A stretch of DNA of 64,000 nt from a virus (IMGVR_UViG_3300035152_000026:86002-150001), one strand, 5' to 3'. Counted from the stretch's first letter, positions 19,587 through 58,675 are shown. The notes: generated by a model from the sequence alone, not told the origin. Translations and numbers: made by a program.

Positions 19587-20060
19587 ATGATGCAAGCAAC
19601 AGCAGAGATTACCGAAGATGTATGGGCCCAACGACGTGCAGTGCGAGACCGCCTGAAAGCTGCGGTCAAACAGGCCAGCGGACGCAAAGCAACAGTCCTC
19701 TGCATGATGATTTCGCACATGCGGGGAAAGCTCCACTGCCAGAGCTATCAGAAGTACCACGGCGGCTGGCGATCCGTAGCGCAGCAACATGTCGAGGCCA
19801 TGCGCGCACGCAACCGGTTCGAGGAGCGGCTCGGGCCCGGCCAGGAACGCAAGTGGACCGAGTATCTCTTCGCCAGCTCGGTCATCGACACGCTCGACGA
19901 CCAAGCAGCATTTCTCCGCAAGTTCCTCGACGAGGAAGCCGTACAACGACGACGCTACGAGGAGGTCACGCAGAACGGGCGCCGCAAGCCGTACGTGTGG
20001 GAAACTCCTATGTTCGACGAGGAGTTGTGCAACATCTGCAAGGAGGTTTCGGCGACCTGA
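19587..20060 (+). CDS. hypothetical protein
   Basis: 157-aa ORF with GAAAGGA upstream. Confidence 0.4.
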   Translation: MMQATAEITEDVWAQRRAVRDRLKAAVKQASGRKATVLCMMISHMRGKLHCQSYQKYHGGWRSVAQQHVEAMRARNRFEERLGPGQERKWTEYLFASSVIDTLDDQAAFLRKFLDEEAVQRRRYEEVTQNGRRKPYVWETPMFDEELCNICKEVSAT

Positions 20061-20095
20061 CAGAATACGTCAGGCCTGGCCAGTATAGTCAGGCC

Positions 20096-21154
20096 ATGCT
20101 CACATCACCCTGTGACCTAGATCGGCCACCATTCGATGACCTGCACAGCTTCCGGTATTGGCGTAGGCAGGGCTATGTGCCTACCGCGCGGCTCGATGGC
20201 CGGAAAGAGTGGGGAGAGGTCTGTCATCTCCGCTGCCAATCGGATTCAAGTGTCGTAGCGTGTCCTAACAACATTGCCGGTGTACTTGCGTTAGAACGCC
20301 TCCACCAGGCTGTGGTCACGCGAACGTTCTTCGATCCGAAGACAGCACATGACACGGGTACGATCTACGTGACATTGATCCCACGTCCTGTCGTAGACTG
20401 GTTCTCGACATGCACGACGTCGGACGTCCACGAACAGATTGTGCTCTATCTCGGATTGCACATTGCACTCGGAGGCGACCAAGCGCTAATCCTACGTGAC
20501 ACTGCTCGTAAGTATCACGACAAGATTGTCAAACGCGTTGATACGTTACTCCGTGATCACCCCGATCTCCGCAACGATGAGCACGTCGTTGACTTGTCAC
20601 GTTACACGTCGAGTTTGCCTCCTTGGTTTCGACCCGAGCAAGTAACGTACGATAACCGTCGCCTGTGGACACTGCCGCCGCTGTGTCATATACCCTGGCC
20701 GAGGCGCACCAACCGGTGGGACACTTTTGGGATCATCAACTACCGGCTGACGGAAGTTGACGAAAAAAGGATCGACGACCACGAAAGCGATCCGCTTGAT
20801 CGCGCTGAGTCCTGCCCAGACGCGTTCGAGCACTTGCTCTATGCGCGTCACGCGAAAGACGCTTGGGCGACGATGTTTCAATCCGAGGATGACAACACAG
20901 GTGCTATCTATCTCATCCAGGATGGGCGTGGGCGTGTCAAAATCGGATGGACGGATAGTACACCTGCGAAGCGGCTAGCCGCACTACAGACCGGCAACGC
21001 TGATACGCTGCGGCTGCTAGGCACTATCCCCGGAACGCGAGAACAAGAGAAATATCTACACGCGAGATACGCCGACCAGAAAGCCCGTGACGAACGAACC
21101 GAATGGTTTTGTCTCACGCCAGCTGACGTGTTGGAGATTCTACGTGTGTCATAG
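20096..21154 (+). CDS. T5orf172 / GIY-YIG-like domain protein (C-terminal domain)
   Basis: The C-terminus (GAIYLIQDGRGRVKIGWT...RLAALQTGN...EQEKYLHARYA...EWF) matches the T5orf172/MUG113 family. The start is set at the first plausible Met; the 5' 474 nt of ORF 19622..21154 is the alternate frame of the upstream gene. Confidence 0.5.
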   Translation: MLTSPCDLDRPPFDDLHSFRYWRRQGYVPTARLDGRKEWGEVCHLRCQSDSSVVACPNNIAGVLALERLHQAVVTRTFFDPKTAHDTGTIYVTLIPRPVVDWFSTCTTSDVHEQIVLYLGLHIALGGDQALILRDTARKYHDKIVKRVDTLLRDHPDLRNDEHVVDLSRYTSSLPPWFRPEQVTYDNRRLWTLPPLCHIPWPRRTNRWDTFGIINYRLTEVDEKRIDDHESDPLDRAESCPDAFEHLLYARHAKDAWATMFQSEDDNTGAIYLIQDGRGRVKIGWTDSTPAKRLAALQTGNADTLRLLGTIPGTREQEKYLHARYADQKARDERTEWFCLTPADVLEILRVS

Positions 21155-21178: not shown

Positions 21179-21251
21179 ACACCCGTAGCTCGAAGGCCGA
21201 GCGTGCAGTCTGTGGAGCTGCAAGGTGGGGGTTCGATTCCCTCCGGGTGTA
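21179..21251 (+). tRNA. isolated tRNA-like gene with an ambiguous anticodon arm (9-nt loop, or 6-bp stem with GTG)
   Basis: Acceptor ACACCCG/CGGGTGT, D-arm GCTC/GAGC, T-arm GGGGG-TTCGATT-CCCTC (identical to the T-arm of tRNA-Thr at 54409). The anticodon region is TGCAG-TCTGTGGAG-CTGCA. Confidence 0.45.
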
Positions 21252-21262
21252 CCGGAGGATCG

Positions 21263-31636: not shown

Positions 31637-31986
31637 GGTAACGTTCTTTTAGCACGTGGGTGTGACCACCCTGCTCGACGCCGCAAACGAGCCTCCCTGA
31701 CTAGCTCAGCGTTTCGATGCACTTCAGCTTCCGCTACGATACGGGTAGCGCCAGCCTTGTGATCAGACTGCGGATTTGGTCCGATGAGGCTGACGAAGTC
31801 GGGCAACGAATCCGCAGCGACAAGCGTCGCAGTGTAGGAGTCCAACACGTAAGCCTTGACTTCCCCGACACACGTCACCCAGCCGACCACGTTCCGCAAT
31901 CGTGGCTGCGTGGCGTCGTGGTCCTCATAGATCGCGAAGTAGCCCGAAGCTGCGGTACAGAAAGTCATTTGCGCAGGTTTAGACAT
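31633..31986 (-). CDS. hypothetical protein
   Basis: 117-aa ORF overlapping its neighbours by 4-8 nt. Confidence 0.4.
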   Translation of the reverse strand: MSKPAQMTFCTAASGYFAIYEDHDATQPRLRNVVGWVTCVGEVKAYVLDSYTATLVAADSLPDFVSLIGPNPQSDHKAGATRIVAEAEVHRNAELVREARLRRRAGWSHPRAKRTLP

Positions 31987-34900
31987 CTGCCCAGCTCCGG
32001 CCTTTCGCAGGGTCTACCGAGAAGTGAATCGTGACGCCGTTATGTGTGTGAGTCTGCTCGAAGCAGTCTTTGACGTCAGTCATCAAGCGGTCGCCGTCAG
32101 CCTCGTCGCACTCGAAAACGATGGCGTCGTGGATCTGGATGATCGGGTCAGCGTTGGAGTATTCGTTGCGTAGCTTTGGCATCAAACGGAGGAGCCCAGT
32201 GGCCATGATGTCAGCTCCAGTCGACTGAACCGGGAAGTTGTACACGTCGTTCATGTCAGCGTTGCCCAGAGGGAAACACCGTCGCCGACCGTAGATTGCC
32301 GACCGCAGCTCGTGCGGTGGCTGGGCAACGTCTCGCAGAAGCTTCTGATGCCACGCCGTAACGCCGGGCATCCGCGCGGTCATCAACGCGACCATCCGCG
32401 CGATGTCAGCCTGCTTTACGTCCGGGTAGTCCTTGACCACGTTCTTCCAGAGCGTGTCGATCGACCCTCCGTAGAATGCCCCATACTCGGGCCGCTTGAC
32501 CGTATCGCGGAGAACCTTGCGGCGCTCATAAGGTAACTCGTCGAAGTTGGGCCAAACGATGCGTGCGAACTCGCTGTGGATATCCTTCCCGTCGTTGAAG
32601 ATCGCGCACAGGAATGGATCGCCGGAAAGAAGTGCGATGATTCGTGCTTCTAGCTGCGCGAAGTCGAAGCCAACAAGGATCCGTCCAAGGCGTGCTTCAA
32701 ACTGTTTGCGGAGATTTGGGCGCCCCTTCTTCGCGTCAGCTTTCGGCACGTTCTGGCAGACTGGATCTTCAGCACTCCATCGGCCTGTGATCCGATGGAC
32801 ATTCCACCGCGGATGCACGCGACTGTTCGCGTCTGCATAGCCGTACTTGACGATGTTGCCCTGTTCGTCATATCGATCAAAGAGCGCGTAGACGAAGGTA
32901 GAGAACAGTTTCTGATTCTCGCGGTAGTCCAACAGGCTACGTACTTCGGGGATGTGCGCGAAGCTTTCCAGGATCTCTTTCTTCGTGGACGTCGAACCCT
33001 TCTCGGTCAGGAAGTAGAGCGGCACTCCACGAGCCTTTAGATAACCAACGATGTGATCCGAGGAGCCAACGTTCCACTCCCACGTAGCTTTATCGATGGA
33101 ATCGAGCAGCTCTTGCAGGCGTACCTTTTGTCGCTCCCGATAGTCTTCCGGATCTGGCTCTTTACCTTTTGGGTTACGTGCGAACTTCGCTTGCTCGGCT
33201 GCAATGCCAACCCATAGCTCTTCCTGGATCTCAGGCCGGGCAGCGTCGTCCTCAACGATCTTACGGAGCGCTTCGTTTTCCTTGTCGCTACGCCACGCGT
33301 AGAGTGCTTGGATGGCTGGGTGCTTGTCCGCGTGATCTTTGAGCCACGCCTTCGTGATGCTGGCCGCACCCTTTTTGGTCAGGGGCACATCAAGCCCGTG
33401 GACCTTCAACCAACCAGCAAGATGCGCCGACGAATTGATTTGCCACTTCCAAGCGCCTCTGTCTGCGGCGATCCGAATTTCGTCCAAGCGAACCTGTTGT
33501 CGGGCCTCGTAGCGTTCGGGGTCCTGTTTGGCCGCAGTCCCTTTGCGAACACGCTTGGCTTGCTCTGCCGCGATGCGATCAAGCAGCTTGTCGCGGATCT
33601 CAGGGTTGTTAGCCTTCTCTTCGATTTCTGCACGCGCCCGCTGCATGTTCTGCCAGAACTGATCGTAGAGCTGTTGATTCACCTCCTGTGAAACCGGGAT
33701 GCCCGCGTCGTACATCCATTCCGCGGCTTCTGCGCACAGAAGATCAATCTCGTAGCACTTCGCAGACTGTGTGCGCGCGATGGCGATATCGAGGGGCTCG
33801 TCGAGGCGTGCGGTAACTAGTGTGTCCTTGGCGTTATAGATTACGAGGTTCTCAACCGTGTCTTTGCCTTCACGGAACTCCGATTTCCACGGCGTGATCG
33901 CGAAGTACTGCGTAGCCGCGCGTTGCAGGTTGTGCGAAAGGCCAGGAAAGGCTGCGTGGTGTTTGAGCAACGTGTCATCGACTGGACCGTGTACGGGCAT
34001 TCCATGCCGTTTCAAAACACCACGGTCATATATCGAGTTGTGGAACACGACACGAACAAGCGGATCGGCCATAAGCGCAGCCATGAGGCGCTTGGCCATC
34101 GGTGTGACGATGTTCCATGCTATCGAAAGGCCCCACTTTGGGGTAGCGAAGCCGATGGCGGTCAACTTTGCGTTGATGGGCTGTAGTGCAGAATGCTGTT
34201 GCTCGTTGTCTACGTAGGTCTCGGTGTCGCAGGCTACCATGCGCTCTCTGCGAGCATCTTGCACCATCCGACGCATAAGCATCTCGGCGCGTCTGGCGTC
34301 AGCGTACTCGACGACGATGTCCTCCTCGCGGAAGACGATATCGCGTCCGGCAGCGATGGCCTTCACCTTCGCTGCGTCGTACATCAGATTCCAGAAAGCA
34401 ATGTCTGGCGAGTGCGCGCCGCCAATTCCGGCGCCCCCGCGGAGGATTGCCGCAGGGTGAATCGTTGGGATGACTGCGCGGTAGCCTGAACCGTCCGCGT
34501 TGACCTGATGATAGGAGCCCGCCAACGCCTGGATCGAAGTGTTGCGCCCGAGGAATGCGCGAGTTGCCACAGCACCGAGGGCGAGCACAGGAAGGCCTGG
34601 GCGCTCAACCATCTCTGCGGTAAAACGTGGCTCGCAGCACTTGCGGGCCTTTTCTTTCAAGTTGTCGTCAGCCTCTGGTGGCGGTCGGCACAACGTAACG
34701 TTAGACACCCACAAGCGGCGCCGATCTTGCCCAACGGCTGTGAGTGCTTTGTTGACCAACTGCCCGCTAGCGCCAACGAACGGACGGCCTAAAGCAGCTT
34801 CGTGCTGACCCGGACCTTCACCAATGACAATCCATTCCGGCGTCGCTGACCCCTCCCCAACAACAGGTTGGTTAGGTTGTCTATTTCTGGCTAGTGGACA

Positions 34901-34993
34901 ATCTTCACACAGCGCGCCCTCGATGCGCCCACGAATCATCGGTGCAGGTCCTGCACGTAGAACAGGACTCTGTCCTTGCGGACGTAACCGCAT
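31979..34993 (-). CDS. polA: DNA polymerase I-family (family A) polymerase with an N-terminal family-4 uracil-DNA glycosylase-like domain (UDG-PolA fusion)
   Basis: N-terminus: GEGPGQHEAALGRPFVGASGQLVNKAL...HPAAILR (UDG family 4 motifs). C-terminus: DFAQLEARI (motif A), RRKVLRD...YGAFYG (motif B), QIHDAIVFE (motif C). 1004 aa. Confidence 0.85.
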   Translation of the reverse strand: MRLRPQGQSPVLRAGPAPMIRGRIEGALCEDCPLARNRQPNQPVVGEGSATPEWIVIGEGPGQHEAALGRPFVGASGQLVNKALTAVGQDRRRLWVSNVTLCRPPPEADDNLKEKARKCCEPRFTAEMVERPGLPVLALGAVATRAFLGRNTSIQALAGSYHQVNADGSGYRAVIPTIHPAAILRGGAGIGGAHSPDIAFWNLMYDAAKVKAIAAGRDIVFREEDIVVEYADARRAEMLMRRMVQDARRERMVACDTETYVDNEQQHSALQPINAKLTAIGFATPKWGLSIAWNIVTPMAKRLMAALMADPLVRVVFHNSIYDRGVLKRHGMPVHGPVDDTLLKHHAAFPGLSHNLQRAATQYFAITPWKSEFREGKDTVENLVIYNAKDTLVTARLDEPLDIAIARTQSAKCYEIDLLCAEAAEWMYDAGIPVSQEVNQQLYDQFWQNMQRARAEIEEKANNPEIRDKLLDRIAAEQAKRVRKGTAAKQDPERYEARQQVRLDEIRIAADRGAWKWQINSSAHLAGWLKVHGLDVPLTKKGAASITKAWLKDHADKHPAIQALYAWRSDKENEALRKIVEDDAARPEIQEELWVGIAAEQAKFARNPKGKEPDPEDYRERQKVRLQELLDSIDKATWEWNVGSSDHIVGYLKARGVPLYFLTEKGSTSTKKEILESFAHIPEVRSLLDYRENQKLFSTFVYALFDRYDEQGNIVKYGYADANSRVHPRWNVHRITGRWSAEDPVCQNVPKADAKKGRPNLRKQFEARLGRILVGFDFAQLEARIIALLSGDPFLCAIFNDGKDIHSEFARIVWPNFDELPYERRKVLRDTVKRPEYGAFYGGSIDTLWKNVVKDYPDVKQADIARMVALMTARMPGVTAWHQKLLRDVAQPPHELRSAIYGRRRCFPLGNADMNDVYNFPVQSTGADIMATGLLRLMPKLRNEYSNADPIIQIHDAIVFECDEADGDRLMTDVKDCFEQTHTHNGVTIHFSVDPAKGRSWADV

Positions 34994-34996
34994 TGA

Positions 34997-35563
34997 TCAT
35001 GCCCAGCTCGTCGGGCGTGTCTCCGCCAATGTATCGATCAGGAAATCGCGGCCGTCAGCGTCCGCTAGCAACGGACTGTTGCTTCGGACGTATCCACCTG
35101 GCGGCCGTTTGGTTTTACGTTCCTTGGTAGGCGGCAACGTGACGCTGATGATCTGTTCGCGGAGGAGAAGTGTCTTGAGTGCGCGGTAAACTGCTCGCGC
35201 ATTCACCTGACCGTAGTCTTCGAGGACATCGCTGTACAGGTCCTGGAATGGCTTGCAGTAACGTACGGGAATGTGGTCGTAGATGACCTCGCACAACGTC
35301 TCCCCGTGACGTTCACGGCAATGCGGGTACGCCGCGTCGTAGAGCGGGTCCTCGGCACCCTGAAAATCGATAGGGTGTGCTGCATGAATGTCAACCCGCG
35401 GACAACGATCGTCGCGACAGATCCGAACACCTCCGTAAAATTCGTCGAGTTCAACAACCGCCGCACGCTGGGCGCGCGCTGCGATCACATTGTCATAGCG
35501 CTCCTGTGAGCGTGACTTTGAACGCGCTCGCTTCTTTCGCGAGCATGACTTCGACCGTTTCAT
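34997..35563 (-). CDS. hypothetical protein sharing a Cys/His motif (GV.ICRD..CP...IHAAHPI) with ORF 37107..37439; possible HNH-like or zinc-binding module
   Basis: VELDEFYGGVRICRDDRCPRVDIHAAHPI here aligns with VEEGVEICRDEACPIIEIHAAHPI in the paralog. The N-terminus is basic. Confidence 0.4.
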   Translation of the reverse strand: MKRSKSCSRKKRARSKSRSQERYDNVIAARAQRAAVVELDEFYGGVRICRDDRCPRVDIHAAHPIDFQGAEDPLYDAAYPHCRERHGETLCEVIYDHIPVRYCKPFQDLYSDVLEDYGQVNARAVYRALKTLLLREQIISVTLPPTKERKTKRPPGGYVRSNSPLLADADGRDFLIDTLAETRPTSWA

Positions 35564-35653
35564 CTCTTCGTCCTGTATTCATCAACTGCCCAGAGTTCAG
35601 TCCTGACGAGAGGCACTACGTCACTACGTGCCTCCCGTCAGGACGCGAAACAG

Positions 35654-36241
35654 CTACCGACGGACCTGTGGGCCCTGGTTGTTGCCTGGCCGACGCTGCG
35701 CCACAGGGCGTCCCTGCGGCGCCTGACGCTGCTGTACGGGCGCCTGACGCTGCTGTGGCGCTGGTGCCTCCTCGACCATGAGGGGCTCCTCGCCCACGAT
35801 CCTGACAGCCTCCTTGGTCACGTTCTGTCCGGTGCGCGAGTCGAAGTCCGTGTAGGGCTCGATGATGGCCTCGGCGCGCATCTGCGTACCGACCATGCTC
35901 GCGGGCGCGAACCGGTGGTTCTCGTCGGTCTCCACCCCGAGGGCGTCGATCAGGTTCTTCATGCGGCGACGCGCTCCATCGTTGTCGGGCAGAATCGCGT
36001 AGCTCTGTCGCGTGGTGCGGCCCTGCATCGGACCTTCCGAGATCACCCGGTAGGTCAAGCGTAGGGTAGGGTTTCCCTTCCCGCTCACGCCCATCGCAGC
36101 CTCGGTAACCTCCAGGTCATAGAAGCCTGGATCGATTCGGCTGCTCCGGCCGTCCCACCCCTCCAGGTTGGGATCGCCGAGACCCATGTCGATGTACTCG
36201 ACGTAGCTTGAGTCGTTGCTGTTGTCGTTCTGTTGCGGCAT
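35654..36241 (-). CDS. DUF669-like phage protein (ssDNA-binding-like partner of Sak4), Gln/Pro-rich C-terminus
   Basis: Lies immediately downstream of the AAA_24 ATPase, as in the Sak4-DUF669 module. The C-terminal tail is APAPQQRQAPVQQRQAPQGRP. Confidence 0.5.
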   Translation of the reverse strand: MPQQNDNSNDSSYVEYIDMGLGDPNLEGWDGRSSRIDPGFYDLEVTEAAMGVSGKGNPTLRLTYRVISEGPMQGRTTRQSYAILPDNDGARRRMKNLIDALGVETDENHRFAPASMVGTQMRAEAIIEPYTDFDSRTGQNVTKEAVRIVGEEPLMVEEAPAPQQRQAPVQQRQAPQGRPVAQRRPGNNQGPQVRR

Positions 36242-36268
36242 ATGGTTCTCCTATGGACTGATTGGTTG

Positions 36269-37102
36269 TTACTGCTGTTGCGTCACGGCGGCACTAGCGC
36301 CGACCGGTTGGCCTGTAGGGGCTTGCATGGGCATTGGAGTGAGGTTCAACGCCTCGGCGAAGGTTCGATAGGTACAGTCCGGCACGAAGATTTCGTTGTC
36401 GGGATCCTCTTCAGTGGTAGTCCAGTACCCTAGCGGGTCAGGCAACGCACCTTCGTCACGACCACCTGCGGCGTACTGTTGCCAACGCTTCGTACGGATC
36501 TCGAACTGTAGTGAGCCGTCCTGTAACGTGTAAGCCCGATGATAGAGAATGTAGTCAGTGCCCGCAGCGAACTTCATCGCCTGCTGACCGCTGATCATGG
36601 GTGTGCCGATGGGGTTGTCGCTGTCGGGTGTCTTCTCTAGGCAGACCCACAACACGTTCACTGGCAAGTTGTGAATCTGCACTCGCAGCGAGCGTAAGTT
36701 GGCACCGAGTGAACCGTACACTCGCCGCATGTCAGGCATGCTGCCGTTTTTCGACATTGCTCGCGTGAGCGTGTCGAGAAGCAAATCGTTGTAGAAGGTC
36801 AGTGAATCGACGACGAGTGTTTGAACCTCACCAGCACGAATCAACGAATCTGCATCGCCGATCGCTTCCATCATGTCGGCGATCCGCTCGATGGCCCAAA
36901 CGCGTGGACGGCGCTCTGGTTCCCAAAGCGCTCCGGGGTCCATATTGATGACCGTCGTCCAGCCACCTTCACTAGCCTCGGATAGGAACAACGGTCTGGG
37001 CCAACTTGCCGCCCAGCGCGTTTTCCCGGAGCGCATCGCACCGTAAGACAGACACGTGATACGTTGCGCCTGGATCGGATCGTCCAAATCGATCTTACGC
37101 AT
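36269..37102 (-). CDS. AAA_24 family ATPase (Sak4-like RecA-fold recombination protein)
   Basis: Walker A (SYGAMRSGKT), Walker B (LVVDSL), 277 aa. Typical phage Sak4 context. Confidence 0.65.
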   Translation of the reverse strand: MRKIDLDDPIQAQRITCLSYGAMRSGKTRWAASWPRPLFLSEASEGGWTTVINMDPGALWEPERRPRVWAIERIADMMEAIGDADSLIRAGEVQTLVVDSLTFYNDLLLDTLTRAMSKNGSMPDMRRVYGSLGANLRSLRVQIHNLPVNVLWVCLEKTPDSDNPIGTPMISGQQAMKFAAGTDYILYHRAYTLQDGSLQFEIRTKRWQQYAAGGRDEGALPDPLGYWTTTEEDPDNEIFVPDCTYRTFAEALNLTPMPMQAPTGQPVGASAAVTQQQ

Positions 37103-37106
37103 TCGG

Positions 37107-37439
37107 TTATTTCCCTTTCTTCGTGGGTGTGCGTATGAAGGAGTTGCGTCGATCCCAGCCGCAAGCTAGACACCGTGCGCCTTGACCTACCGGTATCGAT
37201 GCAAAACACTGCGGGCAGGTTTTTGGTGCACGTCCTCGCATAGACGGTATGATTGGGTGCGCAGCGTGTATCTCTATAATGGGGCAGGCTTCGTCCCGGC
37301 AAATCTCCACACCCTCTTCGACTTCGTCGATTGACAGTGCAATCAGCTGCTTGGTAGTGCCCATGTCTCGCCCCCCACAGCGATACGTTGATCCAACCGC
37401 GCGATGTCTGCGTCGGCTAGTACGAGACGGTATTCCCAC
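37107..37439 (-). CDS. small Cys/His-motif protein, paralog of 34997..35563
   Basis: Shared motif plus a C-terminal CPQC. Confidence 0.4.
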   Translation of the reverse strand: MGIPSRTSRRRHRAVGSTYRCGGRDMGTTKQLIALSIDEVEEGVEICRDEACPIIEIHAAHPIIPSMRGRAPKTCPQCFASIPVGQGARCLACGWDRRNSFIRTPTKKGK

Positions 37440-37667
37440 AGTCCTTGGGTACGGCGCCGAGCGTCTACCTGATGGCCGCCAAATTTGGGTTTACGAAAAT
37501 CTCGTAGTCGCGCGCTGATAGCTGCTTCACTACCACCTACGACACGATAGATCTCGTTCAACGTACGCCATTGGCCGTCGCGCATGAGAGCCAACACACG
37601 GCCGAGTTGTCCCGTCAAACGAATTTGATCGAGCGCGGGATCGTAGGTGTGTCCGCCGAACGGCACG

Positions 37668-39053
37668 CTAGCCCTCCCGATGCGCGCAGTGATCCCACTG
37701 GCTGCACATGCCGTAGCGGCTGACGCAATTAGCACGCGCTCGGGGGAAGATACCGCCGGCCATCATGAAGAGCCGCATCCCTTGCCACATCCGCAAGTCG
37801 TTCGCGTGCTGCTTTATTTGCCAGCGCTGCGGAACGACAAGCGTACGGTGGAATTGTTGTTGGCGCTGCTTACCAATGATGTTCATCATCACGCCGGTCA
37901 GCTTGCCGAATTTGCGGGTCAGCTTGAGACGCTGCCAAAGCATGATCTGGCCAATGACCTCGCCGTCGTTCTGCCAACCATCGAGTGTGGCAGTATCGAA
38001 CCTGCCAGTCGTCTTGTGTTCGACCACATACGTTCCAGCAGGAAAACGCGAGTCCGCCTTTTCAACTTTGGCAATCAGGTCGTAGCGAGCTGACTCTTTT
38101 GTCTCTGAGTCCACCACGTGGTACTCGACTGCAAGCGGTGTGATGAAGTCTTGCTCGTAGAAGAGCGCGTAGCCTGCCCAAAGGCGCCACGCTTCCATCA
38201 GAACTGCGGCATCACAACCCGCGTCGAGCAACGCCTTGTTCAGAATCTCAGGCGTGAGCGGGTAGGCTGGATCAATGAATTGCTGGTAGTACACCGCGAG
38301 GAAGGCATGAACCGCTGAACCGATCTCGATATAGTTTGGTGGACGTTCCTCTACGTACCGCAAGCCGTCGATGTATAGCCGCTTGAAGAGGTAGGGGCAG
38401 CGCTGGTACGTCGAGAAGCTTGACCAACCCAGGTCGCCCGACGCGCCACCCAACCGCGGCACCTCGTACGCCTTGAAAACCTGATGTAGGCCTTTGTCCA
38501 GCGGCGTGATGGTGAGATCACGTTCGGTAGGCAAGAGCAACGTGCCATCTTCCGCGGTAGCCGCACCTGCCGGCAATATCGACGGCACTATGTCGGCTTT
38601 CTTTGTCCGCCGCTTCCTGGGTTTGGGCGGCGGTGGCGCCGAAGGAAGCACCGGTAGTTCGTCTTCGTAGTCTTCGTCTTCGTCTACGTCTGAAATCCCG
38701 TCTGCGATCTCAGACGCAACGTCAGGTGAGTCAGTCGCGTCCGCGATAACGTCCTCGGGAGGTACCGGTGCTGCATCAACGACCGGTTGCGTGACCTCAT
38801 AGATGAAACCATCATCGGCAATGAAGTACTGACGATCGAGGCTTTCTCCCGCTGCATCTACTAGGATAGCAATGCAGGGTGCGTCGGCGTCGTGCTCGAA
38901 GATGCCTTCAGCACCGGTCGCGATGCAACGAGTACCGCAGACAACGCAGTAAACGTCGTCCTGCGTCGTCTTGATCGCGTCCGCGATCCCGTCAATACCA
39001 TAGTTTTGGGTGTCAGGTGCCGTTGTAGGCGTCATCCCGCCCTGTCTTGCCAT
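37668..39053 (-). CDS. PD-(D/E)XK nuclease, Cas4/RecB-like exonuclease with Fe-S Cys cluster and an extra acidic N-terminal domain
   Basis: Four-Cys pattern: N-proximal QRCPYLFKR plus C-terminal CVSRYGMCSQWDHC. Adjacent to the Sak4/DUF669 genes (classic phage recombination module). Confidence 0.6.
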   Translation of the reverse strand: MARQGGMTPTTAPDTQNYGIDGIADAIKTTQDDVYCVVCGTRCIATGAEGIFEHDADAPCIAILVDAAGESLDRQYFIADDGFIYEVTQPVVDAAPVPPEDVIADATDSPDVASEIADGISDVDEDEDYEDELPVLPSAPPPPKPRKRRTKKADIVPSILPAGAATAEDGTLLLPTERDLTITPLDKGLHQVFKAYEVPRLGGASGDLGWSSFSTYQRCPYLFKRLYIDGLRYVEERPPNYIEIGSAVHAFLAVYYQQFIDPAYPLTPEILNKALLDAGCDAAVLMEAWRLWAGYALFYEQDFITPLAVEYHVVDSETKESARYDLIAKVEKADSRFPAGTYVVEHKTTGRFDTATLDGWQNDGEVIGQIMLWQRLKLTRKFGKLTGVMMNIIGKQRQQQFHRTLVVPQRWQIKQHANDLRMWQGMRLFMMAGGIFPRARANCVSRYGMCSQWDHCAHREG

Positions 39054-39143
39054 TCGATCCCCCGATCAAATGAGCGAATGCCCGGTTGCTGTGAAACGCG
39101 TCCGGTTTACTTATCACTTCGGTGTGACAATCTGCAATCGGTT

Positions 39144-40742
39144 TCACCCGACATCTTCTGCGCCCGCAAGAAATGCTTCCATAAGACGCTGCATATCGGG
39201 TTCGACGGGATCGATTTGGAAGGCCTGAGCAATGACGTCAATCGCACTATCCGCCGCAGGGACATTGAGGCTGTTGGCCCTCGCGCACTTCTCTTGCAAG
39301 GCGGTTACCAATCCGCGATCTACAGGATGATCGACGACCAGATACGTCACGGACATCGGTTTATCCGGGGAGAACGTGCGCATTTCGGCTTGCGCAACGG
39401 TCGCGGGTGTGAAGTCCACCTCGGCAAAGATCGCTTGCCGCGCGTGCGAGAGATCAATGGCAACCTGACCGACGGGGATCGTGCAGACGAGCGCCGCGAT
39501 GGCGTTCTTCTTCCAGTCTTCTATTGTCTTTTCGCGGCTATCCACAGAATCGCCACCAGTAGCCGCGAACGCAGGATAGCCCTTCTTCGAGATCGCAGCC
39601 GCGATCTTCCGTGCAACCGTTCGATGCCAGGTCCATACGACGACGGGCTCCCCGTTCGCGAGCACCCGGTCAGCAACATCGACAGCGAGAGGAGCCTTCA
39701 GCCGGCCCAGCAGCTTACGTAACCTCGCCTGACTGCCGATTTTCGTCGGCTTTTTGGTGACGTCTCGCGCGGCCTCGACGGCGAGATCCAGCTCGAATAG
39801 CTGGCGCTCTGTCACGTCAGCGACCTCCACAGATCGTTCGATGGGCGGAAGATCACTACGAACGTCTTCCCACGTGCGTCGAATCATCACTTCTGCAATA
39901 CGAGCGCGAAACTCCTCGACATTGCTTACGCCGTTGTACTTGGTCCCGTAGGCCGTAAGCTCCGGCCCGGCGTACCGCTGCCGGAAGGTGTAGTGAGTGC
40001 CCCACCCGCCGGGATTCAAGCAAGAGAGGATCGCCCAGAGCCCTCCAGGACGGTTCCACAGGGGCGTGCCAGTTGCTGCGATGACTTTCTCTGCCCGAGA
40101 CGCGAGCAGCTGCGCAGCCTGTGTCCGCTTCGCCCGTGGATTACTCAGTAGATGCGCTTCGTCGAAGACCAGCGTGCCAGGACGGCGCAGTGCAAAGTTC
40201 TGCCAGGCAGTGAGGATGTCATAGTGTGCAAAGATACACTCTGCTTCGCGCAGCTGATCGGGACTGTACGTGCGGCCACGGAGCACGATAGGTTCGATGT
40301 CAGGCCAGCGGAGCTTCATCCACCGAGTCCACACCTCGCGTGCGGCCAACGGTCCTACGATCAGCAACGGCCCGCGTGCGGGATCGTGAGCCATAACAGA
40401 TGACAATGTCTTGCCGAGTCTCATCATGTCAGCCAGGAGTACGCCTCGACGCGGTTCGATGTACTCCCGCGCTTCGTGTTGGTACGGCCGTAGCGTGAAA
40501 CCCAACTGCGCCGTCTCGTTGTCCAACGCAGCACGTGCCTGATCGACTTTCGGCACTGTCAATAGGCGTTGTGCACTTTCATGCCCAAGCTGCGCAAGCA
40601 GTGGTAGATGCGTGCGGTGAACTCCGACGTTGTCCCTGCCGAACAGCTGTATTCCAGGCGCTTCTGAGATCTGTACAGCCCACTCCCGCGGAATCAAATA
40701 CCAATCACGGCGCCGTGCGTACGGCACGATCTCGGTGACCAT
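39144..40742 (-). CDS. SNF2-family helicase (SNF2_N plus helicase C domains)
   Basis: LRPYQ (motif Q/I region), GKT Walker A, LVFDEAHLLSN (DEAH box), and a C-terminal helicase domain. Confidence 0.75.
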   Translation of the reverse strand: MVTEIVPYARRRDWYLIPREWAVQISEAPGIQLFGRDNVGVHRTHLPLLAQLGHESAQRLLTVPKVDQARAALDNETAQLGFTLRPYQHEAREYIEPRRGVLLADMMRLGKTLSSVMAHDPARGPLLIVGPLAAREVWTRWMKLRWPDIEPIVLRGRTYSPDQLREAECIFAHYDILTAWQNFALRRPGTLVFDEAHLLSNPRAKRTQAAQLLASRAEKVIAATGTPLWNRPGGLWAILSCLNPGGWGTHYTFRQRYAGPELTAYGTKYNGVSNVEEFRARIAEVMIRRTWEDVRSDLPPIERSVEVADVTERQLFELDLAVEAARDVTKKPTKIGSQARLRKLLGRLKAPLAVDVADRVLANGEPVVVWTWHRTVARKIAAAISKKGYPAFAATGGDSVDSREKTIEDWKKNAIAALVCTIPVGQVAIDLSHARQAIFAEVDFTPATVAQAEMRTFSPDKPMSVTYLVVDHPVDRGLVTALQEKCARANSLNVPAADSAIDVIAQAFQIDPVEPDMQRLMEAFLAGAEDVG

Positions 40743-54480: not shown

Positions 54481-54484
54481 CTGA

Positions 54485-54558
54485 TCCCTCGTAGCTCAAT
54501 TGGTAGCAGCACCTGGCCGTTAACCAGGGGGTTATCCGTTCAAGTCGGATCGAGGGAG
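54485..54558 (+). tRNA. trnN: tRNA-Asn (GTT), D-stem with a one-base insertion
   Basis: Acceptor TCCCTCG/CGAGGGA, anticodon CCTGG-CCGTTAA-CCAGG, T ATCCG-TTCAAGT-CGGAT. Confidence 0.55.
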
Positions 54559-54626
54559 CTACTGGTAGTCAAAGGAAAGGCCCTCGTTGACTAACGCAGG
54601 ATCGTACTCTCAGGTACCTTAGAGCT

Positions 54627-55136
54627 ATGGAATGCGCCAAGTGCCACGAAGAGTTTCCTACTCGAATAGTCATAGACGGGAAGGTGCGGAACCTGTCGAG
54701 TCGTAGGTACTGCGTTTCCTGCTCCCCATTTGGGGCTAACAATCGGAAGAAGATCCACATCCACGATATAAGACGTAAGCCGACTAGGTGTAGGTTGTGC
54801 TCAGGGAAGCTAGTCCCCGGGAAAGGGGATGTATGCTACACCTGTCGATCTAGGATTAGGCGATATCGGGTGAAGGTTGCGGCTATAACCCTCCTTGGCG
54901 GAAAGTGTCAACGCTGTGGTTTCTCAGGGAGTCCAGCAGCCTTTGAGTTCCACCACAACGGTAAGAAGGACTTTCAGATCAGCGAGAACAGCAACCGAGC
55001 GTGGGCTGTAGTCAAGAAGGAAGTTCTGAAATGCGAACTCCTGTGTTCCAATTGCCATCGACAGGAGCACACTGGAGATAGGGGGGAGGCGTTCCTTCGT
55101 GCCGTAGCGGAGTACAGAGGGATGCCCCTGACCTGA
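54627..55136 (+). CDS. HNH endonuclease inserted in the tRNA array (homing-endonuclease-like)
   Basis: Cys pairs CAKCH/CVSC and CQRCG; FEFHH...CSNCHRQEH is the HNH motif. Local GC is lower than the flanks. Confidence 0.7.
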   Translation: MECAKCHEEFPTRIVIDGKVRNLSSRRYCVSCSPFGANNRKKIHIHDIRRKPTRCRLCSGKLVPGKGDVCYTCRSRIRRYRVKVAAITLLGGKCQRCGFSGSPAAFEFHHNGKKDFQISENSNRAWAVVKKEVLKCELLCSNCHRQEHTGDRGEAFLRAVAEYRGMPLT

Positions 55137-55138
55137 CT

Positions 55139-55209
55139 GGCTTCGTAGTCAAGTGGCAAGGCACGGGTCTGCAAAACCTGTATCGTGGGTTCGACTCCCA
55201 CCGAAGCCT
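55139..55209 (+). tRNA. trnC: tRNA-Cys (GCA)
   Basis: Acceptor GGCTTCG/CGAAGCC, anticodon loop CTGCAAA, T GTGGG-TTCGACT-CCCAC. Confidence 0.6.
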
Positions 55210-55253
55210 CCGCAAAGCAAGCATTCCCAGTGACGAGGGAAAACACGTCCTCT

Positions 55254-55325
55254 GGCCTCGTCTGCTAACGGTCAAGCAGCTGGTCTTTCAAGCCAGCAAT
55301 CCGAGTTCGATTCTCGGCGGGGTCA
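55254..55325 (+). tRNA. trnE: tRNA-Glu (TTC)
   Basis: Acceptor GGCCTCG/CGGGGTC (two G-U pairs), anticodon CTGGT-CTTTCAA-GCCAG, T CCGAG-TTCGATT-CTCGG. Confidence 0.55.
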
Positions 55326-55329
55326 CAAC

Positions 55330-55402
55330 CGGAGCGTAGGGTATTTGGCAACCCGCTTGGTTTGGGACCAAGAGCATGCAGGTTCGAGTCCTGTCGCTCC
55401 GA
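55330..55402 (+). tRNA. trnP: tRNA-Pro (TGG)
   Basis: Acceptor CGGAGCG/CGCTCCG, anticodon CTTGG-TTTGGGA-CCAAG, T GCAGG-TTCGAGT-CCTGT. Confidence 0.7.
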
Positions 55403-55403
55403 C

Positions 55404-55475
55404 CGGGGTGTAGCGAAGCGGTATCGCGCATGGTTCGGGACCATGAGATCGCTGGTTCGATCCCAGCCACTCCGA
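55404..55475 (+). tRNA. trnP: tRNA-Pro (CGG)
   Basis: Acceptor CGGGGTG/CACTCCG, anticodon CATGG-TTCGGGA-CCATG, T GCTGG-TTCGATC-CCAGC. Confidence 0.7.
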
Positions 55476-55479
55476 CTGA

Positions 55480-55550
55480 TCCCCTGTAGCTCAACAGGAG
55501 AGCACTCGCTTGATAAGCGAGAGATGACAGCGCAACTCTGTCCGGGGGAA
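55480..55550 (+). tRNA. trnI: tRNA-Ile (GAT), atypical T-loop CGCAACT
   Basis: Acceptor TCCCCTG/CGGGGGA, anticodon CTCGC-TTGATAA-GCGAG. Confidence 0.55.
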
Positions 55551-55555
55551 CTGAT

Positions 55556-55630
55556 GGTGGGCGTAGCTCAATGGCAGAGCGCGCGGTTGTGGCCCGCGTG
55601 ATGGAAGTTCGATTCTTCTCGCTCACCCCA
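55556..55630 (+). tRNA. trnH: tRNA-His (GTG) with encoded G-1, C73 discriminator and CCA
   Basis: G-1 precedes acceptor GTGGGCG/CGCTCAC. Anticodon CGCGG-TTGTGGC-CCGCG. T GGAAG-TTCGATT-CTTCT. Confidence 0.7.
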
Positions 55631-55644
55631 AGAAGTCATAGTTA

Positions 55645-55680
55645 GAGCGGGAAGTGCAGGTTCGATTCCTGTCGGTTGCG
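55645..55680 (+). pseudogene. orphan tRNA 3' fragment (T-arm GCAGG-TTCGATT-CCTGT plus acceptor-like 3' strand); decayed partial duplicate of the tRNA-Pro(TGG) 3' half
   Basis: AGTGCAGGTTCGATTCCTGTCGGTTGCG vs the Pro 3' half GCATGCAGGTTCGAGTCCTGTCGCTCCG. There is no room for a 5' half after tRNA-His. Confidence 0.4.
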
Positions 55681-55721
55681 GTCGCCGCGCCGTGGTGTAA
55701 CAAGGGAGCACGCTCGCGTTT

Positions 55722-55793
55722 GGAGCTGTAAGCATCTGGTGAGGCTACCGGTCTGTCTAACCGGCGAGGCGGGTTCAATTCCCGTCAGCTCCG
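55722..55793 (+). tRNA. trnD: tRNA-Asp (GTC)
   Basis: Acceptor GGAGCTG/CAGCTCC, anticodon CCGGT-CTGTCTA-ACCGG, T GCGGG-TTCAATT-CCCGT. Confidence 0.65.
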
Positions 55794-55865
55794 CGGCTAG
55801 AGGTGTGGCGCGAAAGCGAAGCCCTAAACCGTCACCTCCGAGCGGGTGCGAGGCCCGCATTTGTT

Positions 55866-55936
55866 GGCCCAGTAGCACAACGGCAGGGCGCTTGCCTTAT
55901 AAGCGAGTGATCTAGGTTCAACTCCTAGCTGGGCTA
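55866..55936 (+). tRNA. tRNA-Ile (TAT) (rare AUA-reading anticodon as encoded)
   Basis: Acceptor GGCCCAG/CTGGGCT, anticodon CTTGC-CTTATAA-GCGAG, T CTAGG-TTCAACT-CCTAG. Confidence 0.5.
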
Positions 55937-55947
55937 CAAATCCGTTT

Positions 55948-56020
55948 GCCACCCAAGCTAACCAAGTGGAAGCGCCGGCCTGAAAAGCCGGAGGGCTCGG
56001 AGCGTTACCGAGGAGTGGCA
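55948..56020 (+). tRNA. tRNA-Phe (GAA)-like with a non-canonical T-loop
   Basis: Acceptor GCCACCC/GAGTGGC (one mismatch), anticodon CCGGC-CTGAAAA-GCCGG (canonical Phe loop), T-like CTCGG-AGCGTTA-CCGAG. Confidence 0.35.
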
Positions 56021-56067
56021 CGGCCAAGAGACGGACGCGTCTCCGAGCGGGTGGAAGGCCCGCACAA

Positions 56068-56139
56068 GGGCCAATAGTGATAAAGGGAACACGCTGCTTT
56101 CGCACGGCAGAGATCTGGGTTCGATTCCCAGTTGGTCCA
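56068..56139 (+). tRNA. trnA: tRNA-Ala (CGC)
   Basis: Acceptor GGGCCAA/TTGGTCC, anticodon CTGCT-TTCGCAC-GGCAG, T CTGGG-TTCGATT-CCCAG. Confidence 0.55.
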
Positions 56140-56306
56140 CAATGCAGGAGCACGTACCTGCCTTGCTGCTGGGCGAACAGACAGCGTAGTCGGGCTTAGC
56201 TAGCTGCGGACTTGCTGGGAGCTTCCAGTATTGGCCTCTGAGGAGGGACGCCTCTGTTCGAGGAGGAGACAAAAACGTGTCGGCGGGGTTAGTTCCTCGT
56301 CGTTAT

Positions 56307-56379
56307 GGGCACCCATGTACCAAGGGGGCGATCTGGCCTTGCAAGCCGGATGTGGTCGGTTCGATCCCGACGGTGTCCA
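56307..56379 (+). tRNA. tRNA-like, Ala (TGC)-type anticodon loop CTTGCAA, irregular D-arm
   Basis: Acceptor GGGCACC/GGTGTCC, T GTCGG-TTCGATC-CCGAC. The D region does not fold canonically. Confidence 0.35.
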
Positions 56380-56403
56380 CGAGCGGGTGGAAGGCCCGCC
56401 TAA

Positions 56404-56475
56404 GGGCTGCTAGTGATAACGGGAACACATCTGGTTTGCACCCAGAAGATCGGGGTTCGATTCCCCGGCGGTCCA
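56404..56475 (+). tRNA. trnA: tRNA-Ala (TGC)
   Basis: Acceptor GGGCTGC/GCGGTCC, anticodon TCTGG-TTTGCAC-CCAGA, T CGGGG-TTCGATT-CCCCG. Confidence 0.55.
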
Positions 56476-56479
56476 CGAC

Positions 56480-56551
56480 GCCCTCGTAGCTCAATGGAGA
56501 GAGCACTCGCCCGGTACGCGAGAGATGACAGTTCGATTCTGTCCTTGGGCT
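56480..56551 (+). tRNA. tRNA-Thr (GGT)-like, two acceptor-stem mismatches
   Basis: D GCTC/GAGC, anticodon CTCGC-CCGGTAC-GCGAG, T GACAG-TTCGATT-CTGTC. Acceptor GCCCTCG vs CTTGGGC. Confidence 0.4.
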
Positions 56552-56558
56552 CTGATTC

Positions 56559-56627
56559 GCCTCTGCCGGTGGAGCCGGACTCCGGGCTACGAACTCGGAA
56601 GACGAGGTTCGATTCCTCGTAGAGGCA
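56559..56627 (+). tRNA. trnR: tRNA-Arg (ACG), compact D-arm (69 nt)
   Basis: Acceptor GCCTCTG/TAGAGGC, anticodon CCGGG-CTACGAA-CTCGG, T CGAGG-TTCGATT-CCTCG. Confidence 0.55.
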
Positions 56628-56631
56628 CGAT

Positions 56632-56699
56632 GCCACTGCTGGTGGAACAGATTCGGGTCTCCTAAACCTGAAGAGATGGTTCGACTCCGTCCAGTGGTA
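56632..56699 (+). tRNA. trnR: tRNA-Arg (CCT), compact D-arm (68 nt)
   Basis: Acceptor GCCACTG/CAGTGGT, anticodon CGGGT-CTCCTAA-ACCTG, T GATGG-TTCGACT-CCGTC. Confidence 0.55.
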
Positions 56700-56702
56700 C
56701 TT

Positions 56703-56770
56703 GCCTCTACTCATGGATGAGGCGCTGCTCTTCTAAAGCAGCTACTCGGGTTCGATTCCTGATGGAGGCG
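56703..56770 (+). tRNA. trnR: tRNA-Arg (TCT), compact D-arm (68 nt)
   Basis: Acceptor GCCTCTA/TGGAGGC, anticodon CTGCT-CTTCTAA-AGCAG, T TCGGG-TTCGATT-CCTGA. Confidence 0.55.
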
Positions 56771-56774
56771 CTTT

Positions 56775-56849
56775 TGCGGGGAGGTTGCTAGTTACCTGTC
56801 AGGTCTCATAAGCCTGACCACGCTGGTGCAATTCCAGCCCCCGCTACCA
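56775..56849 (+). tRNA. trnM: tRNA-Met (CAT) with unpaired 1:72 and encoded CCA, T-loop TGCAATT
   Basis: Acceptor TGCGGGG/CCCCGCT (T-T at 1:72), anticodon CAGGT-CTCATAA-GCCTG. Confidence 0.5.
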
Positions 56850-56923
56850 CGCAGCGACCTACGGGTTAGGCGGCTCGTCTCATAAGCGAGACCGTGAGGG
56901 TCCGATTCCCTCCGCTGCGACCA
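56850..56923 (+). tRNA. tRNA (CAT): elongator Met or Ile2 (lysidine) type
   Basis: Acceptor CGCAGCG/CGCTGCG, anticodon CTCGT-CTCATAA-GCGAG, T GAGGG-TCCGATT-CCCTC, CCA encoded. Confidence 0.55.
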
Positions 56924-56924
56924 C

Positions 56925-56997
56925 GCCGGTCAGCTCACCTGGGGGTGGGACCTGCCTTACAAGCAGGACGCGCTGAGTTCGATTCTCAGGACCGGTA
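56925..56997 (+). tRNA. trnV: tRNA-Val (TAC)
   Basis: Acceptor GCCGGTC/GACCGGT, anticodon CCTGC-CTTACAA-GCAGG, T CTGAG-TTCGATT-CTCAG. Confidence 0.65.
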
Positions 56998-57131
56998 CTG
57001 ATGCGGCCACAGCTAGTCGAAGTTTCGGCAGGGCGGTTGTAGTGACCGTCCCTAGTGGATCGATTCACGGGCTCTAAGGGATTGGAGAGAAGGTCTCCAT
57101 CGGGCGATGGGCTGCATCTTTTGCCTGTGTA

Positions 57132-57205
57132 CCCCAATTGGAAGAGGGAGCGCGCTCAGAACGCGTACAGTGTCAGTTCGAGTCTGACCACAGGTACTCG
57201 CCTCC
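57132..57205 (+). tRNA. tRNA with anticodon CAG (a Leu codon reader) on a class-I scaffold (short variable arm)
   Basis: Acceptor GCCTGTG/CACAGGT, anticodon GCGCG-CTCAGAA-CGCGT, T GTCAG-TTCGAGT-CTGAC. The variable arm is only 4 nt. Confidence 0.45.
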
Positions 57206-57208
57206 GTG

Positions 57209-57279
57209 ATGAAGTGGTGTCATACCTGACCTTTAATCAGGCTACGAGGGTTCGAGTCCTTCCGGGGGCACAAAGCGGG
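57209..57279 (+). tRNA. trnK: tRNA-Lys (TTT)
   Basis: Acceptor GCCTCCG/CGGGGGC, D ATGA/TCAT, anticodon CCTGA-CCTTTAA-TCAGG, T GAGGG-TTCGAGT-CCTTC. Confidence 0.6.
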
Positions 57280-57283
57280 CGTG

Positions 57284-57357
57284 ATGTTCAACGGCCAGCA
57301 TGCGAGGCTTCCAACCTCGTCGTATGGGTTCGAGTCCCATCGTCCGCTCTACTCGGG
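57284..57357 (+). tRNA. trnG: tRNA-Gly (TCC)
   Basis: Acceptor GCGGGCG/CGTCCGC, anticodon CGAGG-CTTCCAA-CCTCG, T ATGGG-TTCGAGT-CCCAT. Confidence 0.65.
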
Positions 57358-57361
57358 GTTG

Positions 57362-57435
57362 ATCCAATGGCAAGATACTCGGCTTTGACCCGAGCAATCT
57401 GGGTTCGAGTCCCAGACCCCGAACCATTCCGGCTT
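57362..57435 (+). tRNA. trnQ: tRNA-Gln (TTG), CCA encoded
   Basis: Acceptor TCGGGGT/ACCCCGA, anticodon CTCGG-CTTTGAC-CCGAG, T CTGGG-TTCGAGT-CCCAG. Confidence 0.65.
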
Positions 57436-57436
57436 C

Positions 57437-57507
57437 GTCTAACGGTAGGACCCACGACTCTGGATCGTGGTATCGGGGTTCGAGTCCCTGAGCCGGAGCT
57501 GCCACCG
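57437..57507 (+). tRNA. trnQ: tRNA-Gln (CTG)
   Basis: Acceptor TCCGGCT/AGCCGGA, anticodon CACGA-CTCTGGA-TCGTG, T CGGGG-TTCGAGT-CCCTG. Confidence 0.65.
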
Positions 57508-57509
57508 TG

Positions 57510-57583
57510 CCCCAATTGGAAGAGGGTCTCGGCTAAGGACCGAGGTGTTGAGAGTTCGAGTCTCTCCGGTGGTACGACGCCCG
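57510..57583 (+). tRNA. tRNA with anticodon AAG (Leu CUN reader if inosine-modified) on a class-I scaffold
   Basis: Acceptor GCCACCG/CGGTGGT, anticodon CTCGG-CTAAGGA-CCGAG, T GAGAG-TTCGAGT-CTCTC. Paralog of the CAG tRNA (shared D region CCCCAATTGGAAGAGGG). Confidence 0.45.
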
Positions 57584-57587
57584 AGTG

Positions 57588-57666
57588 GTGGAAGGGCATA
57601 CACGGCTGGCCTAAACCCAGCTGCTTCGGCGTGAGAGTTCAAATCTCTCCTCGGGCACGATAAGCT
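57588..57666 (+). tRNA. trnL: tRNA-Leu (TAA), class II
   Basis: Acceptor GCCCGAG/CTCGGGC, anticodon GCTGG-CCTAAAC-CCAGC, variable arm TGCTTCGGCGT, T GAGAG-TTCAAAT-CTCTC. Confidence 0.6.
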
Positions 57667-57672
57667 CAGATG

Positions 57673-57752: not shown

Positions 57753-57770
57753 ACCAGAAAGGAGCGAGTC

Positions 57771-58665: not shown

Positions 58666-58675
58666 CTTTCGCCCT

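Follow-up and report, generated by a model that had tools for sequence, protein, structure and literature searches.

We analyzed a single co-oriented gene block (positions 31979–40742, minus strand) in a viral DNA stretch of 64,000 nucleotides (nt), IMGVR_UViG_3300035152_000026:86002-150001; "the window" below means this whole stretch. The block joins a single-strand-annealing and replication gene set of known type to two small genes that a first-pass annotation, made from the sequence alone, had singled out as Cys/His-motif paralogs, possibly HNH-like nicking enzymes or zinc-binding accessory factors. We hold with moderate confidence that these genes encode two new accessory proteins built around a shared knuckle, the small one (KR) working with the Sak4-type recombinase and the large one (KW) with the family-A DNA polymerase (PolA), and that neither is a nuclease. 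The conserved accessory gene pair is new; the module type was already known. The two genes are as follows (aa, amino acids).

34997–35563, minus strand: large paralog KW, 188 aa, with the knuckle and a probable Fur-like winged helix
37107–37364, minus strand: small paralog KR, 85 aa, with the knuckle and a putative zinc ribbon

KR and KW are homologous over a short region, as had been proposed: BLASTP aligns them with 17 of 29 residues identical (E = 1e-10), and hhalign yields 97.7% over 33 columns for the two ortholog sets and 97.5% over 30 columns for the extended families. The shared region spans only about 30 residues, outside which no homology is detectable, and consists of an acidic lead-in followed by C-R-D-(D/E)-x-C-x5-H-x2-H; we refer to it as the knuckle. 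When the window was translated in six frames, C-x4-C-x5-H-x2-H occurred at the KR and KW sites only (mean for shuffled sequence: 0.12), and in every close relative the pattern falls at the corresponding pair of sites. The shortness of the shared region, together with the fact that JGI left the small open reading frame (ORF) uncalled on two contigs of the same phage, might suggest that the motif is coincidental or that the small ORF is not a gene. We regard the chance of this as negligible, given the alignment scores above, the positional conservation of both genes across more than 20 lineages, and a JGI call of the 85-aa protein elsewhere (P0005).

Conservation across the wider family points to a metal site. 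We retrieved 116 proteins bearing the knuckle motif (50%-identity representatives plus closer homologs), of which 106 carry the His at +3 and thus keep the full C-x4-C-x5-H-x2-H spacing. All 10 members without this His have a Cys within +8, usually at +5, vs. 1 of the 106 others (Fisher p = 1.3e-13); such a His-to-Cys ligand swap argues for a four-ligand structural metal site of CCHH or CCHC type. The R-D-(D/E) within the knuckle and the acidic lead-in are also conserved family-wide. Judging from these sequence features, the knuckle most likely forms a beta-hairpin around one zinc ion; metal binding of this kind is well supported by the ligand swap and by the eight invariant Cys/His of KR (see below), which favors the accessory-factor half of the first-pass proposal, with zinc as the presumed metal. 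The classical C2H2 spacing (C-x2-4-C-x12-H-x3-5-H) does not occur here, and no zf-C2H2 Pfam match was obtained for KR or KW members. Profiles of the two paralogs, which are shallow, gave only weak PerR and RING hints against PDB sequences. In four representative clusters (P0040, P0043, P0049, and P0063) the knuckle, ribbon, and winged helix occur in one protein, an architecture that links KR and KW and may represent their ancestor or a fusion of them. KR and KW belong to a previously undescribed family, of at least 116 motif-bearing members, for which neither Pfam nor NCBIfam has a model. With this family recognized, genes labelled hypothetical at present across a broad set of uncultivated phages can be named and acquire a metal site open to testing; the phages themselves are large, intein- and tRNA-rich, and equipped with UDG-PolA fusions.

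The conservation pattern also bears on the other half of the first-pass proposal, that the paralogs are HNH-like (beta-beta-alpha-metal) nicking endonucleases serving the recombination module. In the clade of the window the arrangement C...C...EIHAAHPIIPSMRG...CPxC superficially recalls the C..C...HHIxPxxxGG...CxxC of HNH enzymes by our own reading, but no HNH Pfam family was matched by nine KR members (E ≤ 10), the window proteins (E ≤ 1), or 57 KW members (E ≤ 0.01). The HNH-like string HPIIPSMRG is limited to this clade, and distant KR members lack both PIIPSMRG and any Asn or His after it. Conservation across the whole family is limited to the four ligand positions and R-D-(D/E), with no conserved Asn or third His, so that the His/Asn/His catalytic set of HNH enzymes is not kept. 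Since the last His is replaceable by Cys (10 of 116 proteins), the site appears to be a structural metal site rather than one with a catalytic His. We therefore consider a nicking function very unlikely.

KR is shorter than first annotated: the gene does not run from 37107 to 37439 (110 aa) but starts at the ATG at 37364, a start that matches P0005 and orthologs of 84–86 aa, and the stretch from this ATG up to 37439 belongs to an overlapping winged-helix gene. The protein comprises an acidic lead-in, the knuckle (C22-x4-C27-x5-H33-x2-H36; nt 37257–37301), a putative zinc ribbon (C50-x2-C53-x11-C65-x2-C68-x-W70; nt 37161–37217), and a basic tail. Among nine lineages with identities as low as 25%, none departs from its eight Cys/His or from R23, E25, P51, and W70. 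The ribbon has the expected two CxxC pairs about 11–14 residues apart and is the only part modelled with confidence (AlphaFold2 pLDDT, the predicted local distance difference test score, about 80); Pfam ribbon families match it below threshold only. A Pfam search of nine KR members at E ≤ 10 returned 20 families, all of them zinc-binding or sporadic.

KR lies directly upstream of Sak4 in 21 of the 24 Sak4 lineages (90%-identity clusters), with an 8-nt stop/start overlap in most; in the window, the KR stop lies 4 nt ahead of the Sak4 ATG, leaving a 4-nt spacer instead of an overlap. The conserved overlap suggests that KR and Sak4 are co-produced and function together. By analogy with recombination mediators, KR is most likely an accessory or mediator of Sak4, and its translation in overlap with Sak4 would supply it in stoichiometric amounts. 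Many phages encode Sak4 recombinases, which also serve as recombineering tools, and their only known helper is the cognate single-stranded-DNA-binding protein (SSB). KR, whose gene overlaps that of Sak4 across more than 20 divergent lineages, offers a concrete third-component candidate that annealing or recombineering assays could test.

KW carries a basic Ser/Arg/Lys N-terminus, the knuckle (C49-x4-C54-x5-H60-x2-H63; nt 35375–35419), a probable Fur-like winged helix at residues ~90–142 (nt ~35138–35296), and a conserved C-terminal GGYVRSxSPLL. Its start (ATG 35563) is backed by N-terminal similarity to P0002; JGI starts the gene at an internal GTG, giving 163 aa. Comparison of the window N-terminus with P0003, P0004, P0009, P0010, and P0014 revealed that several orthologs have an HTH_23-like helix-turn-helix (HTH) there, whereas the window copy has the basic stretch instead. 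A profile of four orthologs found 122 representatives (E ≤ 1e-3) among 1.84 billion proteins, most of them covering the motif and the C-terminal domain, and the 57 members aligned all keep C49, C54, and H60. A subgroup profile derived from the 122 representatives found nothing in the contigs of a genome collection (no prophage copy) or in IMG/VR. PHROGs gave three isolated matches, each to a single KW member. Among the annotations considered, the "replication initiation protein" of phrog_270 was set aside as sporadic: it appeared in 1 of 57 members and in none of ten members scanned singly. Against PDB sequences, the C-terminal half aligned, recognition helix included, with the DNA-binding domains of Fur (E = 0.013 to 6dk4) and PerR (E = 0.074), below threshold; Pfam FUR was found in 3 of 57 members (best 1.1e-3), along with sporadic sub-threshold HTH_20, HTH_11, and Penicillinase_R matches. 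We consider DNA binding in association with the polymerase block the most likely role of KW.

The neighborhood of the two genes (all features on the minus strand) comprises:

31979–34993, minus strand: fusion of UDG, 3'-5' exonuclease, and PolA (Pfam UDG 1.3e-17, DNA_pol_A_exo1 2.2e-6, DNA_pol_A 2.6e-51)
35600–35644, minus strand: GC-rich stem-loop in the 90-nt gap between the DUF669-type gene and KW
35654–36241, minus strand: DUF669-type SSB-like protein, 195 aa (phrog_378 0.026; orthologs match PF05037)
36269–37102, minus strand: Sak4-type core-only RecA-like ATPase, 277 aa (AAA_24, phrog_124)
37343–37666, minus strand: small winged-helix gene, 107 aa, GTG start (phrog_25381, 1.6e-8)
37668–39053, minus strand: PD-(D/E)XK nuclease, 461 aa (Pfam PDDEXK_1)
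37668–38453, minus strand: nuclease core with four candidate Fe-S cysteines ("Cas4-like"; PDDEXK_1, phrog_1218, phrog_69)
38454–39053, minus strand: N-terminal extension of the nuclease, about 200 aa (four-lineage alignment, charge profile)
39144–40742, minus strand: SNF2-family helicase (Pfam SNF2-rel_dom 4e-20, Helicase_C 3e-7), the first recognized gene of the conserved block

The order SNF2 helicase, nuclease, KR, Sak4, DUF669-type gene, KW, PolA recurs in loci from IMG/VR, JGI, and Logan, and the SNF2 helicase holds the identical position in all related loci. We used a degenerate DNA pattern for the knuckle to collect 40 IMG/VR loci and scored them with hidden Markov models built from the sequences of this analysis; as an upper estimate, about 30 of the 40 keep the full order. 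Among 25 KW lineages, again read as upper estimates, PolA comes next in all 23 that have downstream sequence and the DUF669-type gene precedes in 21 of 23. Five distant KW-family members (26–30% identity) show SNF2 ... PDDEXK_1 ... AAA_24, DUF669, a gap, the member itself, and UDG-PolA ... UvrD, and two still more distant ones head a PolA-UvrD block with neither Sak4 nor DUF669 upstream in the locus. We assign KW to the PolA block, which in the window is the UDG-PolA fusion that KW heads; it keeps its position even in these last two loci. The module had been described as bracketed by the two paralogs; both do flank it, but KR belongs with Sak4 and KW with the polymerase block.

The gap ahead of KW holds the stem-loop, just past the DUF669-type stop codon, with 17-nt arms, an 11-nt loop, and no T-run. 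It is kept in five lineages of the clade (counterparts at 9910–9952 in L001 and 7785–7827 in L009), and the consensus fold has 20 pairs, of which 10 show compensatory substitutions. Its folding z-score is -5.7 vs. shuffled sequences, and several distant lineages are also unusually stable at this site. The element may act as a terminator or an RNA-stability element that separates the Sak4-SSB unit from the KW-PolA unit. A consensus scan found neither a sigma-70-like promoter nor a T-tailed terminator at the relevant sites. Between the hairpin and KW there is a conserved box, CTGGGCAGT(A/T)G (CTGGGCAGTWG), which we considered as an operator and rejected: other parts of the window show no enrichment of it, and no 10-mer is common to the gap and the other intergenic regions. 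KW, placed behind the hairpin and at the head of the UDG-PolA block, most likely binds double-stranded DNA as a regulator or recruiter for that block.

The same features could be read to mean that both paralogs are independent zinc-finger transcription factors whose knuckle reads DNA, KR being a small repressor or activator, with no direct role in recombination. This fits the probable winged helix of KW, the added N-terminal HTH_23 of several orthologs, and the position of KW behind a conserved terminator-like hairpin at the head of a gene block; the basic tail of KR and its ribbon, which resembles TFIIB-type and other DNA-binding ribbons below threshold, fit as well. On the other hand, the 8-nt KR/Sak4 overlap is kept while KR itself diverges to 25–35% identity, which argues for stoichiometric co-production with Sak4 and not for the low dosage of a regulator, and no repeated operator-like sequence is common to the gap upstream of KW and other intergenic regions. 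We judge a purely transcriptional role unlikely, though less so than the other alternatives.

A further and rather improbable extension is that the knuckle is a new protein-docking module, allowing the two proteins to engage one common partner within the Sak4/SSB machinery. The invariant, exposed R-D-(D/E) and the acidic lead-in do suggest a common ligand for the shared knuckle; as a speculative candidate site, the lead-in might bind the basic tail tip of the DUF669-type SSB. In that case KR would serve as a loader dedicated to Sak4, much like a recombination mediator, and KW would hold recombination intermediates at specific DNA sites beside the polymerase genes. If so, the pair would couple annealing to recombination-dependent replication.

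Returning to the reading that we prefer, in which KR assists Sak4, KW serves the PolA block, and neither is a nuclease, several points weigh against it. No homolog of either protein has been characterized, and the functions proposed for KR and KW accordingly come from gene order alone. The loci were gathered through knuckle or KW homologs, and this is why the co-occurrence frequencies are upper estimates. Three Sak4 lineages (L014, L024, and L055) have no KR, so KR is not obligatory for Sak4. AlphaFold2 models of both paralog families, built from four-sequence alignments, reached a mean pLDDT of only 48 and 54, with the knuckle below 50, and a Foldseek search of both models against PDB returned nothing better than E ≥ 3, so that the beta-hairpin fold of the knuckle is a putative one. 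The Fur-like winged helix of KW, although probable from the alignments, is supported by sub-threshold scores, and the metal of the knuckle could be other than zinc.

The annealing module itself corresponds to what had been annotated, and all of the annotated ORFs exist on the minus strand at or close to the coordinates given for them. The Sak4-type protein matches AAA_24 (36.6 bits vs. a cut-off of 27; 5.3e-9) and phrog_124, "Sak4-like ssDNA annealing protein" (2e-14), both above threshold; it has a Walker A (GAMRSGKT) and a Walker B (TLVVD) motif and, at 277 aa, no extra domains. The DUF669-type gene begins 27 nt downstream. Its DUF669 assignment, weaker than the first-pass annotation implied, is indirect and comes through the orthologs: two of them, with 67–68% identity to the window copy, match PF05037 at 1e-4, and more distant aligned orthologs bear precomputed DUF669 matches, while the window copy itself has no Pfam match at E ≤ 10 and a weak one to phrog_378, "SSB" (0.026). 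The protein has a Gln/Pro-rich linker and a C-terminus ending ...RRPGNNQGPQVRR (window 35654–35720), the tip of which is basic. Six lineages keep such a basic tip, as RR, RRA, or RG, with RRA in distant relatives. DUF669 proteins have been argued to be SSBs, typically with an acidic C-terminal tail (PMC4889955); the expected acidic tail is not present here. Annealing by Sak4 is stimulated by its cognate DUF669 SSB, and ~80% of sak4 genes adjoin an ssb gene (PMC5928155). Since this pairing is documented, the nuclease/Sak4/DUF669 module is in itself ordinary; its reading as a single-strand-annealing module is supported by the Pfam, PHROG, and ortholog matches. In such a scheme, the PD-(D/E)XK nuclease would resect DNA ends, the DUF669-type SSB would coat the single strand, and the Sak4 core-RecA ATPase would anneal it, a role established for the Sak4 and SSB families and presumed here.

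The nuclease matches PDDEXK_1 at residues 211–350 (E = 8.5e-8; 32.9 bits vs. a cut-off of 22), the sole Pfam family found at E ≤ 1, and phrog_1218 and phrog_69, both "exonuclease"; its profile has no match among PDB sequences, nor does NCBIfam give one. The residues D325...E345-x-K347, Q369, and C219 are invariant across four aligned lineages, and C443-x6-C450-x5-C456 is conserved in the three whose alignment extends to the C-terminus; the D...ExK residues and the Pfam score, above the gathering threshold, bear out the PD-(D/E)XK assignment. The acidic N-terminal extension is likewise real, and it is clade-specific: residues 1–200 contain 39 D/E vs. 15 K/R (net charge -24), and the extension is common to four lineages of the window's clade, whereas the 346–353-aa orthologs of distant relatives do without it. 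It contains a conserved C36-x2-C39...H54...C60 mini-domain (nt ~38793–38948), an acidic linker (residues 101–140, net charge -15), and a basic patch, KPRKRRTKK; no match to it was found in Pfam, NCBIfam, or PDB sequences.

The first-pass gene list did not mention the winged-helix gene between the nuclease and KR, whose GTG start lies 3 nt past the nuclease stop and whose end overlaps KR by 22 nt. The nearest relatives, L001 and L004, have no room for it at the equivalent site, and in L009 the position is taken by a 90-aa ORF that is unrelated; the winged-helix gene appears to be an insertion specific to this phage, at a variable insertion point. NCBIfam gave no match for any of the six proteins searched. 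No DNA match to the phage lineage was found among INPHARED/GenBank phages, and tblastn of KW and Sak4 (the latter at 1e-5) was also empty there. Within PolA, a segment of ~110–120 aa is tandemly duplicated (residues 464–586 vs. 587–698; window ~32900–33604; 39% identity, E = 2e-24), and appears to be single-copy in the L009 ortholog. Intein or LAGLIDADG insertions occur in relatives, in SNF2 (L009, L017), the nuclease (L009, L012), and PolA (L001, L009); the window copies of all three genes are intein-free.

Other features were observed elsewhere in the window, all on the plus strand where a strand is given:

11–1174, plus strand: ten copies of a ~40-nt repeat with core ATGCTAGCTCGATGRCTAYYCAATCGAGAC and an inverted repeat CTCGAT-n9-ATCGAG inside
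7940–10294, plus strand: ribonucleotide reductase with a C-terminal TSCPD domain
19622–21154, plus strand: 510-aa protein ending in a T5orf172/MUG113 (GIY-YIG-like) domain
21179–21253: one further tRNA-His gene
45486–48092, plus strand: 868-aa protein with a major-vault-protein shoulder domain (PF11978, 3e-30) and a vault repeat, also in L001 and unusual for a phage
53880–58760, plus strand: dense array of 32 tRNA genes covering most amino acids

Given the tRNA array, several ORFs listed in that stretch are probably spurious. The repeat core has eight matches vs. 0 expected, irregularly spaced (55–470 nt) and confined to the first 1.2 kb; the repeats may be promoters or operators, or an origin.

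Compared with known systems, the polymerase resembles the UDG-fused PolA of SP15/YerA41-like phages in having an N-terminal UDG followed by exonuclease and PolA domains (bioRxiv 10.1101/2025.03.26.645540), and differs in its sequence, the best match among GenBank phage PolA proteins having only ~27% identity; a search of that article's text for neighborhood terms turned up no knuckle gene. Within the Fur/PerR family, helices 2–4 and the wing of the Fur DNA-binding domain, including the "TVYRxL" recognition helix, align to the C-terminal half of KW at scores below threshold, but KW has no Fur dimerization or metal-sensing domain and carries its Cys/His knuckle N-terminal to the winged helix.

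The nuclease shares with the Cas4/AddB-type 4-Cys Fe-S nucleases a PDDEXK_1 domain, the D...ExK residues, and one N-terminal plus three C-terminal Cys. Canonical Cas4 proteins have a C-terminal spacing of C-x2-C-x5-C; here it is C-x6-C-x5-C, no Cas_Cas4 Pfam match was found at E ≤ 1, and the ~200-aa clade-specific acidic extension with its own CxxC...H...C mini-domain sets the protein further apart.

RecR, RecO, and the SWIM finger of SWS1 are zinc-binding recombination mediators or Rad51-paralog partners. KR may be likened to them as a small putative zinc protein produced with, or acting on, a RecA-family protein and an SSB; the analogy is purely functional, as there is no sequence or demonstrated structural similarity.

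A parallel to the Sak4-SSB part of the module is the hkaL-hkaK pair of phage HK620 (PMC5928155), where an AAA_24 core-only RecA-like gene has a DUF669-type SSB gene directly after it and a small gene of no assigned function, hkaM, lies upstream of sak4. The present block differs in that a PD-(D/E)XK nuclease takes the place of Abc2, that the SSB tail tip is basic and not acidic, and that the gene upstream of Sak4 encodes a conserved knuckle-ribbon protein, probably zinc-binding, which overlaps Sak4 by 8 nt in most lineages.

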